DNA of 60,000 bases, taken from NCBI GenBank assembly GCA_038087875.1, contig CM075989.1, positions 7,690,001 through 7,750,000 of the forward strand. Reading direction: 5' to 3'. The notes beneath the pieces were generated by a model. That model did not search any database. It was not told the DNA's origin and saw only the letters and a program-made list of their open reading frames with translations. Below are positions 8,786 to 52,885 of the stretch, piece by piece (within the stretch, counting starts at the first letter, position 1; each line of letters begins with the position of its first letter). Position numbers and translations under genes: made by a program. This DNA comes from Malacoraja senta. Lineage: Eukaryota.

Positions 8786-9307
8786 AGGCCCTGTCCCACG
8801 GGCAGGCGGTTACTGGCGGTGAAGCAGGAAGTGGGGACCGCGCGTGGACCACTATGGGACCGCGCATGGCCCGCGGGGTCGGTCCCACGCAGACCGCCGG
8901 AACCGTATGTAGTTGGTCCCGACACCGCGCGGTGCTCAGAAAAACTGACTGTCCAAAAATCTCGGCCTGCCGCCCCGCTGCCGCCTCTTCGCCGTGAGCA
9001 CCGCCTGGACGCCGCGAGAACCGCCTGGACGTCATCGCGTAGCGCATTGCGTTGCGCGATGACATCATCACCCGACGCCGCGCTCGCCGCATGCATTCGC
9101 ATGCTCGTGGGACAGGCCGTACGGTACACACTCGGCATCCTCGCGGCAACCGCTTCCGGTTAGGTTGCGCTTGCCGCATGCTCGTGGGATCGGCCGTACG
9201 GTGAACACTCGGCCCCCGCGCGGCGCTCCCGCGGTAGCAGCGCGGTCCCCACTTCCGGGGACGCCGCGCTTCACCGCCAGTAACCGCCTGCCCGTGGGAC
9301 AGGGCCT
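8786..9307. mobile_element. Palindromic MITE, PIF/Harbinger-like
   Basis: Termini aggccctgtcccacgggcaggcggttactggcggtgaagc and its reverse complement; TAA on both sides (8783-8785, 9308-9310). Confidence 0.85.
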
Positions 9308-9340
9308 TAAAGCACAAGCTCAGAAGATCAGATTTTATGA

Positions 9341-9646
9341 AGTTTAGTTTAGTTTAGAGATACAGCGCGGAAACAGGCCCTTCGGCCCACTGAGTCCGTG
9401 CCACCAGCGATCCCCGCACATTAACACTATCCCACACACACTAGAGACAATTTACAATTTTACCAAGCCAATTAACCTACAAATCTGTACGTCTTTGGAG
9501 TGTGGGAGGAAACTGGAGCTCCCGGAGTAAAACCACGCAGGTCACGGGGAGAACGTATAAATTCAGTAGAGACAGCACCCGAGATCGAACCCGGGTCTCA
9601 GGCGCTGCAAGGCAGCAACTCCACCGCTGCACCACCGAGCCTCCCC
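9341..9646 (-). mobile_element. tRNA-derived SINE (HE1/V-SINE-like)
   Basis: Reverse complement of the SINE at 5388, with (gttta)n tail. Confidence 0.85.
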
Positions 9647-38439: not shown

Positions 38440-39180
38440 TAGATGTCAATCCTGGCCCCTCGCCCTCACGGGGATCTGGGTGCATTGCAGTTCATTCCAG
38501 AGGAGAAGCTGGATACGTAAACACAAGAGGTGTAGAGACACCGGCACCAGGGAGCACGACCCTCCGGCGGGGGTCTCCCACTGAGCGGCTCCGCTCCGCA
38601 CTGCACCCCTCCTGATCCCGTACCCGGGGTGGTCCGGAGACGACCACAAGGCAACTGTATCTCACCTCCGCCCACAACTCCATCCCCAGGCCCCCGAGCG
38701 GGACGAGCAGCGGGTCTCCCCTTACTCACCTGGACACTTTGCTGGCGATGAGTGCGGGAGAGGCGGACAGGCTCCTGCACTTGGCCCTGCCGCGGAGCAG
38801 GGAGCACAGCCCTCTCTCCAGCTCCCGGGGCTGCGGCTGAGGCCCGGCCGGGACACCCGGGCTTGCCTCCTCCATCCCCGCCGTGTCAGGGAGCCGGGTC
38901 GGCGGTGACAGCCCTCGCTGCAGTCCAGGCCCAGCCCGGCTCCGATTGGCAACACAGGGCGACTCGCTACAGGCGCTCCGCCTGCTACAATGTATCAGCG
39001 CCTCCCCCCCCCGCCCGCTCGTAATACCGTAATACCCCGACACCAGCCGGCCCGCCCGCCGCCCTGGCCAGGCTGCAAGTGAAGCAGAGGGCCTCAGATC
39101 AGGAGGGTTACTGCCAGGACATTGTCCATCGCGCTGAGATCCGCAAAGCGGCCACCTAGCCATGGAGCATCGTAAAGCAT
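38440..39180 (-). promoter_or_regulatory. CpG island and probable NADK promoter (CCAAT box 38945-38949, GC boxes near 39000-39062)
   Basis: CpG-dense, repeat-free GC-rich stretch spanning the first coding exon; CCAAT on the minus strand about 70 nt upstream of the ATG; GGGCGG motifs. Confidence 0.75.
38730..38875 (-). CDS. NADK: NAD kinase, first coding exon
   Basis: MEEASPGVPAGPQPQPRELERGLCSLLRGRAKCRSLSASPALIASKVS(R) matches human NADK IRGRAKSRSLSASPALGSTKEFR; donor AG|gtgagt; phase 2 joins the 13598-13681 exon in frame. Confidence 0.9.
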
Positions 39181-49187: not shown

Positions 49188-49268
49188 AGGGCGGCGCAGT
49201 GGCACAGCGGGTAGAGCTGCTGCCCCACAGCGCCAGAGACCCGGGTTTGGTCCTGACTTCGGTTGCTG
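49188..49268 (+). mobile_element. 5' half of a SINE split by the hAT-like element (3' half resumes at 52137)
   Basis: SINE head ends at ...ctgacttcggttgctg; the body resumes gttgctctctgtgtggagtatgctcgttctccc at 52137. Confidence 0.85.
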
Positions 49269-50715
49269 CAGGACTGCCAACATTGAGTGACAGTTGGGAG
49301 TGAGAATTTGCGAGAGACCAAGCCCGAGGGAGCGTAGCAACCGAGGGGAGAGGGTGAGTGGGGGGAGGGGGGAGGGGGGAGGGTGTGGGAGGGGGATGTC
49401 CCCCTCCCATTGGTACGCAGCTTTTGCATTTTTCAGCTTGAAATTGTGCAATCTGGTGCATACTGAAGCGAGTTTTTTAACTTACACTTGCAATATTAAT
49501 GCTTTAAATTGGATTAGCTATGAATAAGGTTAGGCTAAATTACATTCCTAATTACATTCCACAGTAAAGCCAGGCTCTGATCAACAGGTGCAGTACATGA
49601 ATGATCTTAGTATATTCATGTATGGAAAGCAGATTATAATCAAACACTTGGCCCATGTTGACCAACCTGGGTCTCACTGCACACCTGGTCCTACTGACTC
49701 CAGTTGCATACCTTCTCTCATTCCTGACCCTGAGTCTAGCCTTACACCTGGCCCCCTATTCTACCATGATCATAGCTGCTTACCTGCTTAGGTTCCCAGT
49801 GCTGAACACTCCCATTGTCCCAGCTTTGACTGCACACCTAGTACTATTCCAGATCTTGACTCTGGATGCACACTTGGCCTTGCTCCTAGTCCCTCTGCAC
49901 TGACAATATATGTGGCCCACACATGAAGCCCCATATCTGACCCCCTGGACTTAACCTATTACATTCAAGTCCACAAGTGCTTATCTAATGTGGTAATCTT
50001 TTATGGGGCACCTCATAGACCAAATTATGTATAACAAAATTTGCCACATCCATTGGCTTCCTTGTTATCTAACATGCTACATACTTTGTCAAAGAAGTCA
50101 TCAATTGGTTGAACGCAATTTCTCATCCATAAAATTATACTCACTCAGCTGTATGTATTCTGTTACCATTTCCTTCATTTTCCTAACAAACTGTCCTGAT
50201 GTCATTTTCACCCCCAATATTTTCAGTATTTTGCTGTCTTCCTCTCAGCTGGGACTTTTCCAAAATGCAAAGTCCAAAAACTATATATTTAAGCAATATT
50301 ATTCTATTAAATGTGATCTTGAGAGTATTGTGGTATTCATAACACAATAATGTAACACAATAATGATAATAAGATCTTTGTTTTGATTGCACCTACCAAC
50401 ATGCATACATTATTATATTACAGTTAATATGTACCGAGGGCAAATTTTTATTCCAATGCTCCCCATTCCCAATTATTTTTACATTGAAGTGATTGAAATC
50501 CAAGTGAAGTTTAAATGGCATCAGAAAAATAAAACCTCCGGAATGGATGATATTCATTACATGGCTGGTTGGAGTCAGTATCAGCACATTTACTATATTA
50601 AAGTTAGAATCTTCAGATGTCCTGGATCAAGCTAAAACTAAAGACAAATAATAATCTCCTCACACATTCCCCTGCAAGTATCTCTGTCACTCCTTTAAAA
50701 TATGCCCCTTCTTTG

Positions 50716-51252
50716 ATGTTTCTATGCTTGAGTATTTGGCAATAAAACTCGACCACTTGATTTTAAAGCATTCATGCATGGTGGAGGTATAATGTAGTCA
50801 TAGAGTGATACAGTGTGAAAACAGTGTGACCCCCCCTCCCACGGTAGGGACTTTTTGAAATTTGATGTATTAAAATCGTGTTTTAGTGCATTGTAGAAGT
50901 ATGATTTCAATGTTTTTTGTTTGAAGTATTTTTAAGAGGTAACTTTTAAGGGATAACTTTTTCCACACAAAGGGTGGTGGGTGTATGGAACAAGCTGCCA
51001 GAGGAGATAGTTGAGGCAAGGACTATCCCAACATTTAAGAAACAGTTAGACTGATACATGGATAGGTTTGGAGGGATATGGACCAAAAGCAGGTAGTGTA
51101 GCTGGGACATGTTGGCGGGTGTGGGCAAGTTGGGCCGAAGGGCCTGTTTTCACACTGTATCACTCTATGACTACATTATACCTCCACCATGCATGAATGC
51201 TTTAAAATCAAGTGGTCGAGTTTTATTGCCAAATACTCAAGCATAGAAACAT
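50716..51252. repeat. 109-bp perfect inverted repeat (50716-50824 and 51144-51252)
   Basis: The two arms read as exact reverse complements, with a spacer of about 320 bp. Confidence 0.9.
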
Positions 51253-51683
51253 AGAAAATGGGTGCAGGAATAGGCCATTCGGTCCTTCGAGCCTGCACTG
51301 CCATTCAATATGATCATGGCTGTTCATTTAAAATCTGTACCTCTTTCCTGTTTTTCTCCATATTCCTTGATTTCTCTAGCCCCAAGAGCTAAATGTAAGT
51401 CTATTTTGAAAACATCCAGTGAATTGGCCTCCACTGCCTTCTGTGGCACAGAAGTCCACAGATTCCCAATTGTCTGTGTGAAGAAAGTTTGTCTTCATCT
51501 CAGTCCCAACTGACCTACCCTTTATTCTTAAACTGTGACCCCTGGTTCTGAACTCCCTCAACATCGGGAAAATGTTTCCTGCAGTTAAGTGAAAATCTAG
51601 CAGGCAAGCAGGATGCTTTCTCCAACCACCCCCATTTGAAGGCCACTATCTTCCACTGCGTCTACCCAGTGCTTGGTACTTAC

Positions 51684-51954
51684 TTCCAGCAGCCACTGGT
51701 TGTCCTCCAGGATGCACCGAGCCGCAGCCTGGTCCATGACGGTTACCAGGGCGAATTCGGCACAGAGACTCTCATGGCAGCGGCGCAATGCTTCCGACGC
51801 CTCCGACAGCCCGGGACTCTTGCACTGAGGGTGCTCCATGGATGAAGCTGCAGCGAACGACTCGCCAGCCCGGCAAACACTCGCCAGCCCGGCAAACACT
51901 CGCCAGCCCCGGCTCCCCATCCACATCTGCCCCCGTTGCTGCTTCAGCTTCCAT
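51684..51954 (-). pseudogene. TDP2: TDP2-like exon 1 fragment (UBA-like N-terminus) with splice donor, frameshifted, inside a transposon
   Basis: RRCHESLCAEFALVTVMDQAAARCILEDNQWLLE|gtaagt versus human TDP2 KRRLLCVEFASVASCDAAVAQCFLAENDWEME|; no downstream TDP2 exons recognised. Confidence 0.75.
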
Positions 51955-52596
51955 CCCTCCCTCAGCCCTGGCTCTCCAACACCCGCGGCCCATGCCGTTG
52001 ATATGAGTTTTGAAATTCTCGTTGATCACAGAATTTCTCACGACAGAGCGTGAGAAATTTGTGATCAGCGTGAGACCGTGAGAATTTGGCCAAATGCATG
52101 ATTCTCACGCTCAATGCATGAGAGTTGGCAGCCCTGGTTGCTCTCTGTGTGGAGTATGCTCGTTCTCCCTGTGACCGCGTGTGTTTACTCCGGGTGCTCG
52201 ATTCCTCCCACATTCCAAAGACGTATGGATTTATAGGTCAATTGACTTTTGTAAATTCCCCTAGTGTTAAGATGTGAAAGTGGGATAACATAGAACTAGT
52301 GTACGGGTGATCAATGGTTGATATGGACTCGGTGTGGCCAAAGCGTCTGTTTCTATGTATAGGAAGAAACTGGTTTACACCAAAAATAGACACAATATGC
52401 TGTAGTAACTCAGCGGGACAAGCAGCATCTCTAGAGTGAAGGAATGGGTGATGTTTTAGGTCGAGACCCTACTTCAGATTGGGCCGTGTTTCTATGCTGT
52501 ATTTCTAAAATAAATATTGGCTGATTTGGAAAGTTGCCATTGCAGTCCCTCCTCCAGGTCATTAATGTACTTCCTGTCTATAACCCAAACACTTTA

Positions 52597-52885
52597 GGGC
52601 GGCACGGTGGAACAGCGGTAGAATTGCTGCCTTACAGCACCAGAGACCCGGGTTCGACCCTGACTATGGGTGCTGTCTGTACGGAGTTTGTATGTTCTTC
52701 CTTTGACCATGTGGACTTTCTCTGGGTGCTACGGTTTCCTCCCACACTCCAAAGATATACAGGTTTGTAGGTTGATTGGCTTCAGTAAAGAATGTAAATT
52801 GTCTCTAGTGTGTGTAGGATAGGATGATTGCAGGCTTGGTGGGCCAAAGGGCCTGATTCCACGCTGTATCTCTAAACTAAACTAA
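52597..52885 (+). mobile_element. tRNA-derived SINE (HE1/V-SINE-like)
   Basis: Full head, body and (taaac)n tail. Confidence 0.85.

Follow-up and report, generated by a model that had tools for sequence, protein, structure and literature searches.

Structure of the locus

The window analysed here is a 60,000-nucleotide stretch of the genome of Malacoraja senta (GenBank assembly GCA_038087875.1, contig CM075989.1, positions 7,690,001 to 7,750,000, forward strand), and positions given without a contig name refer to it. In this window, a 2,868-bp segment (49269-52136) interrupts a tRNA-type SINE. The segment is composed of an outer element, an inner element nested within it and, inside the latter, DNA from the 5′ end of TDP2. 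The individual parts are as follows.

49188..49268, plus strand: 5′ half of the tRNA-type SINE, the insertion target, assigned by its in-register join with the 3′ half
49262..49268, plus strand: left target-site duplication, 7 bp, 6/7 identical to 52137-52143
49269..49640, plus strand: left terminus of the outer element, with TIR 49269-49281 and a subterminal repeat at 49300
49641..50716, plus strand: interior of the outer element
50717..50833, minus strand: copy-specific inverted duplicate of 51144-51252, replacing about 610 bp that include the inner left TIR
50834..50948, plus strand: remnant of the left subterminal region of the inner element
50949..51683, minus strand: captured stretch of TDP2 intron 1 with LINE-type fragments placed as in the host intron
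51684..51839, minus strand: captured coding part of TDP2 exon 1, 52 codons, first part of the UBA-like domain, phase-0 donor GTAAGT
51840..51982, minus strand: captured TDP2 5′ region, carrying a 19-bp tandem duplication (51860-51909)
51983..51994, minus strand: remnant of the inner right TIR, 12 bp; the same motif begins free-standing inner copies
51995..52136, plus strand: right terminus of the outer element, short form, with TIR 52124-52136 and subterminal repeats at 52036-52108
52137..52510, plus strand: right target duplication (52137-52143) and 3′ half of the SINE

A SINE split by a 2.87-kb segment and inverted termini with gtgaga subterminal repeats had already been described in the first-pass annotation, and both observations hold. 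After removal of 7 bp, the two SINE halves align unbroken and in register to the intact SINE at 52594-52870. The inverted ends are 13 bp long; reverse-complemented, the right end at 52136 agrees with the left one at 49269 at 12 of 13 bases. The GTGAGA/TCTCAC repeats are found at 49300 and throughout 52036-52108. The target duplication of this copy comprises 7 bp with one mismatch (GTTGCTG / GTTGCTC). The left terminus of the outer element (49269..49640) is shared with a second family which carries other cargo. The outer interior (49641-50716) yielded neither a Pfam match in 7 frames nor any similarity to hAT transposases. It also had no match within the 190 kb around TDP2, and the matches listed in a genome search with it were copies of the family.

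From the majority sequence of full-length copies, the window copy diverges by 3.3% and 4.5% (one figure per half), and about 610 bp of family sequence are missing, with the inverted copy of 51144-51252 in their place. The in-frame ATG of the captured exon is located at 51839. A further ATG at 51993 belongs to the remnant of the inner inverted repeat and is not the start of the exon, while the upstream ATG at 51954 is out of frame because of the 19-bp tandem duplication.

An exon at 13600-13680 matches NAD kinase (E 1e-7), and 38875-38730 is, judging from a motif, the putative first coding exon of NADK. The donor at 51684 lies 12.8 kb from the start of this exon (38875) on the same strand. The earlier placement of the element, sense to NADK and about 12.8 kb upstream, is therefore retained with this motif-based identity of exon 1. 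A search for NADK exon 1 in Atlas gave only low-score leads, and no NADK exon was found with the PF01513 profile. On the other side of the element lie what are, judging from motifs, presumably G-protein-beta-like exons, the last of them ending about 17.6 kb away from it. The stretch 8801-9400, located downstream of the second NADK exon, forms a strong CpG island (GC 0.64-0.67, o/e 1.3).

The captured exon and its parent genes

The exon at 51839-51684 on the minus strand encodes 52 codons ending in WLLE, followed by gtaagt. Its translation matches the N-terminal, UBA-like part of TDP2 in PDB (E 0.001) and is 78% identical to TDP2 of Leucoraja and 72% to that of Rhinoraja, which bears out its earlier description as a TDP2-like first exon; the Pfam hit to UBA_4 remained below the cut-off (E 0.02). 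To judge from this protein similarity, the genome is likely that of a skate or ray. The first-pass annotation had noted no other TDP2 exons; intron 1 is kept after the exon and exon 2 does not follow.

A separate, intact TDP2 locus, expected if the exon is a mobile copy, is present on contig C19 in the form of two complete tandem genes, A (4674572-4712516) and B (4603402-4646618). The outer TIR is absent near exon 1 of gene A, and neither terminus aligns at exon 1 of gene A or B. The cargo runs colinear with the host genes from their 5′ region over exon 1 into intron 1 and includes the same intronic repeat fragments; it was therefore captured from DNA. The PF03372 profile proved unsuitable for locating TDP2, as it returned LINE endonucleases instead.

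Within the captured stretch, genes A and B differ by 3.7% and group together in the tree (100/99). The element copies differ from A and B by 9-12% and from one another by 6-9%, and the tree of copies and hosts (46 rows) is star-like. Judging from these distances, the capture appears to predate the split of A and B, provided that exon 1 has not been homogenised by conversion. Exons 2-5 and the last exon of gene B are more diverged (57-80% to skate TDP2, tblastn). This, together with the difference of just 3.7% from A around exon 1, may reflect conversion or a faster protein evolution. Two copies of the second family are located on C19 (4689106-4691275 and 4736134-4741051), one of them within an intron of TDP2 gene A. 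In one free-type copy (L056), the exon has the indel state of Leucoraja TDP2 and not the 24-bp deletion of most copies; it is possibly an early branch.

Copy number, dispersal and forms of the composite

A 23-mer from the exon matched the genome 1,192 times at up to 2 mismatches, the two host genes included (control: 0), which corresponds to about 1,190 dispersed copies of TDP2 exon 1. A 19-mer from the left TIR had 1,147 exact matches (control: 0). Among the best 40 scored of 2,340 candidates, the right end together with the exon recurred at at least 39 other places with 90-93% identity. In 24 of 30 exon loci, picked by pattern in genome order, the outer right TIR lay within 900 bp of the exon. 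In another set of 24 loci, the outer left end was present in 21, one of them spurious. Thirty left-TIR loci, likewise taken in genome order, led into the interior of the TDP2 family in 15 cases and shared only about 355 bp in 11, the remaining 4 being other. Full-length copies measure about 3.3 kb and are 91-97% identical to the majority sequence, which was built from 15 of them. The prediction that the exon would be found joined to the TIR in many dispersed copies, with different flanks and recurring pairs of ends, is thus borne out by about 1,190 copies and 41 examined end pairs.

The composite occurs in forms with a long, a short and a doubled right end. In the short form, to which the window copy belongs, about 260 bp beyond the inner right end and most of the 70 bp on its inner side are missing, and 12 bp of this end are kept (51983-51994); end-directed and microhomology deletions would account for these losses. 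The 154 matches of the long right end were rejected as a count of TDP2 copies, as 10 of 14 sampled ones belong to another family. In a doubled-end subfamily (L134, L135, L139, L141, L142, L151), which forms one clade (95/92), the right TIR and the TDP2 5′ piece are each present twice, separated by a purine-rich tract.

In a DNA run of organism D, 158 contigs exit the right TIR into unlike flanks (agreement 0.34), and the family is therefore dispersed there too. Between 0.43 and 0.50 of the sampled words were present in 14 runs from eight organisms and nine studies.

An inner element with its own ends

Within the outer element, a second pair of inverted ends encloses the TDP2 DNA. The junction between inner end and TDP2 has 233 matches in the genome. 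Eleven junction loci were sampled, six of them free-standing and five nested, the selection of loci not beside a listed long outer end having enriched free copies. Both ends are present in four free copies of 1.84-1.92 kb, three of which have an exact 5-bp duplication. The inner element is non-autonomous and measures about 1.9 kb. Some 1.2 kb of it is TDP2 DNA, which comprises the 5′ region starting about 235 bp ahead of the ATG, then exon 1 and a part of intron 1.

Nested copies contain less host intron and less inner subterminal sequence than free ones. The duplication at the nested site is GTTCA, kept on the left in L239 and on the right in L242, L245 and L246; in L233, as well as in another family, the site is uninterrupted. 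At their left ends, the inner and outer elements have subterminal sequence in common. It was this inner element, with its 5-bp duplications, that took up the TDP2 DNA, and it was later nested in the outer one, an arrangement that the first-pass annotation had missed. It is the structure that suggests the order of free before nested forms, as the tree gives no order for the two (support 14/78). We found no empty parent of the inner element that carries TDP2.

TDP2 is not the only cargo associated with these ends. The inner right end has 256 matches in the genome at up to one mismatch, and of four sampled loci one carries TDP2 and three carry other CpG- and CCAAT-rich cargo of two kinds. Such cargo lies between ends of the inner family in L247, L249 and L250, of which L247 measures 621 bp and sits within an outer-type element. 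The second outer family (L069, L070, L076, L088) combines the same outer ends with a different interior, in which a CpG-rich stretch and a donor-like site lie near the right end. Parent loci of these other cargoes were not found, and the term promoter-like describes their sequence only. A further family (L222-L231), the terminus of which we take to be Tc1/mariner-pogo-like, has about 300 bp in common with the long outer right end, and modules have therefore been shuffled between TIR families.

Target duplications and the superfamily of both elements

Target duplications were scored in 41 end pairs (the window copy, 21 pairs and 19 of 20 further pairs, one without a right TIR having been dropped). 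An exact duplication was present in 25 of them, with a mode of 6 bp (14 pairs) followed by 7 bp (8 pairs), 5 bp (2 pairs) and 9 bp (1 pair), whereas shuffled pairs would give at most 0.04 at 6-9 bp. Among the 16 pairs lacking an exact duplication, seven recover one at one mismatch, five belong to the doubled-end subfamily with the true end outside the locus and four are unexplained. The 8-bp duplications that had been anticipated for a hAT element did not materialise, with no exact case and a single one with one mismatch in the 41 pairs, and with 7 bp in the window copy. For the inner element, the 5-bp duplication in three of the four free copies is joined by GTTCA at the nested site.

Among the features of the hAT superfamily are short TIRs with subterminal repeats, and a 13-bp TIR with GTGAGA repeats is present here. 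The group hAT5 is defined by 5-bp and hAT6 by 6-bp duplications, both belonging to the Blackjack lineage (searched parts of PMC12730594). The 5-bp inner and 6-bp outer-mode duplications are like those of these two groups and, together with the short TIRs and subterminal repeats, fit hAT5/hAT6. Unlike hAT6 as described there, the outer family has many 7-bp duplications; mixed 6- and 7-bp duplications within one family differ from the hAT6 definition. Going by these sequence features, both elements are probably hAT elements, and the composite would work like a putative hAT5 element nested in a putative hAT6-like one. The searched parts of PMC12730594 do not mention gene capture by the hAT5/hAT6 groups.

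No transposase with these ends was found in a protein search and among 60 screened hAT-domain loci, which came from 150 scored of 1,648 candidates. Three loci considered as autonomous partners (L161, L166, L170) turned out to be family copies adjoining unrelated hAT remnants. A low-copy, degenerate hAT transposase family (L170 / L178-L183) includes a stop-free stretch of 628 residues (L180), and one of its copies is interrupted by the TDP2 element. Two single long hAT-derived frames of 713 and 689 aa (L098, L107), without near copies among 30 loci compared, are possibly domesticated genes.

P-type elements create 7-8-bp duplications. With the ends being CA...TG, a third of the exact duplications measuring 7 bp and no hAT partner among the 60 hAT-domain loci, the same anatomy could also have arisen if a transposase from another TIR superfamily, for example of the P/Galileo type, had moved the outer element or both. 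This is unlikely, however, as the mode is 6 bp in the outer and 5 bp in the inner element, short TIRs with subterminal repeats fit hAT5/hAT6, and inner and outer left ends have subterminal sequence in common. We thus prefer hAT5/hAT6-type transposases for both elements. Irrespective of the superfamily, all tested features of Pack-TIRs were found: paired TIRs, distinct duplications, a parent locus without termini and a kept intron. Helitrons have neither TIRs nor target duplications, and such an element is rejected for the present copies, which have both. A retrocopy or a LINE transduction, to be known by spliced exons or a poly(A) tail, was likewise discarded, as intron 1 follows the exon and the copies end in TIRs.

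Fate of the copies

The state of the exon was scored in 67 copies, 37 of them picked by similarity and 30 by a short pattern. The ATG is present in 65, the GT donor in 63, and 43 are free of stops and frameshifts; 41 combine all three. Without correction, pN/pS was 0.51-0.54 (p=1e-6) in these copies. After correction with the rates of the adjacent intron (transition bias) and removal of CpG and shared subfamily sites, the dN/dS-like ratio was 0.81 (p=0.20), with 135 nonsynonymous and 61 synonymous changes observed and 155 and 57 expected. The pattern-picked subset gave 0.68 (p=0.09) and a further subset 1.16 (p=0.59). Over the 67 copies, 8 stops were observed against 10.5 expected. The copies are hence likely to evolve close to neutrally, as decaying baggage. 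CpG sites diverge by 12.3% and other sites by 3.1%, a fourfold faster loss of CpG, while both host TDP2 genes differ from the family majority at none of 32 CpG positions. Methylated and unconstrained copies alongside an unmethylated parent island would fit these data.

According to the first-pass annotation, the element could spread a CpG-rich start exon and a strong splice donor, and some copies, including the one in the window, could be alternative first exons or promoters spliced into neighbours such as NADK. The shared strand and the distance of 12.8 kb would allow this, the donor reads GTAAGT in 31 of the 67 copies where the host has GTAGGT, with GT kept in 63, and a bat Helitron carrying a first exon is known to be fused with a host transcript (searched parts of PMC4224331). 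However, the phase-0 donor meets a phase-2 acceptor at NADK and would therefore splice out of frame, and the nearer candidate acceptor at 39071 leads to a stop after 28 further codons. Furthermore, the CpG o/e falls from 0.84 in the host to 0.69 in the window copy, most of the upstream host sequence is deleted in the short form, and the copies evolve near-neutrally. Such a use is very unlikely, and the phase mismatch and the near-neutral evolution leave a functional link to NADK unsupported.

Proposed history of the composite

Taken together, we are rather confident that the window holds one of about 1,190 non-coding, two-tier copies in which an inner element with the TDP2 exon is nested in an outer element, that both were likely moved by hAT5/hAT6-type transposases and that the copies likely decay neutrally. 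The inner element may have acquired the TDP2 DNA by template switching during break repair. A single insertion of the inner into the outer element would then have founded the composite, in line with the GTTCA halves and the empty site. Transposases supplied in trans could have spread it, to judge from its dispersal with duplications of 5-9 bp, mostly 6-7 bp. Deletions at the inner ends would have produced the short form seen in the window, and germline methylation in combination with a lack of protein function may explain the near-neutral substitutions and the fourfold CpG loss.

An origin of the exon copies by retrocopying, segmental duplication or assembly error is hardly conceivable and is ruled out for the family by the target duplications and the star-like tree: although a few loci are paired with the same flank (L072/L073, L081/L092) and the assembly has 6,182 contigs, the intron is kept with no exon 2 after it, the copies differ by 6-9%, their flanks differ with target duplications of their own, and contigs of organism D also leave the TIR into unlike flanks.

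Beyond the nested hAT5/hAT6-type composite itself, a broader idea is possible but rather doubtful: in skate-like fishes, elements of this type would repeatedly capture CpG-island promoters and first exons adjacent to their ends (TDP2 and at least three promoter-like cargoes), nest and seed more than 1,000 start exons and donors, some of which would be used as transcription starts or feed a TDP2-directed silencing by small RNAs.

Comparison with known gene-capturing elements

Animal Pack-TIRs are known, among them Pack-hAT-N8_XT with the 5′ UTR of CAPSL (Tan et al., 2021; searched parts of PMC8277862), and like the TDP2 element they are non-autonomous TIR elements with host gene DNA, a distant parent locus and distinct target duplications. 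In these parts of the survey, four unique cases are multicopy, with 3-5 copies in the examples given, whereas the TDP2 element is built in two nested tiers, falls into several subfamilies and numbers about 1,190 copies. The survey demanded a unique best match for the cargo (searched parts of PMC8277862), a filter which would tend to miss such a family; neither a shark nor a cartilaginous fish is named in the same parts.

As to the kind of cargo, the bat Helitron HelibatN3 is similar, as it carries, also in a vertebrate, the promoter, 5′ UTR, exon 1 and part of intron 1 of NUBPL; it has about a thousand copies, and cargo from 5′ ends was linked to high copy number (searched parts of PMC4224331). 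HelibatN3 is a rolling-circle element (searched parts of PMC4224331), whereas the TDP2 element has TIRs and duplications of 5-9 bp and is therefore of the cut-and-paste type. Plant Pack-MULE and Pack-TYPE elements resemble it in DNA-level capture, sharp boundaries and flanking duplications (searched parts of PMC8616336; see also PMC8903248). They are, however, usually not highly repeated (searched parts of PMC8616336), unlike the TDP2 family, which is so in a vertebrate. Searches of the open literature found no account of the TDP2 element, with Repbase, Dfam and subscription journals lying outside their scope. Its amplification is far above that reported for animal elements of this kind.

A coding first exon captured by cut-and-paste elements can thus reach about 1,200 copies in a vertebrate, a number two orders of magnitude larger than for the multicopy animal Pack-TIRs of the survey (searched parts of PMC8277862), and the step that amplifies it can be the nesting in a second element. 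With its free, long, short and doubled forms, the family provides a dated series on which models of capture and deletion can be tested. It also becomes testable whether promoter or first-exon cargo helps a transposon to spread, and whether a parent gene suffers from the silencing of its copies, the host CpGs being intact here. In practical terms, the true exon 1 of TDP2 in skate-like fishes will be masked or confused when repeat libraries are built de novo or short reads are mapped.

Among the protein sequences, P0002 from another assembly reads through the donor, as an element copy would.
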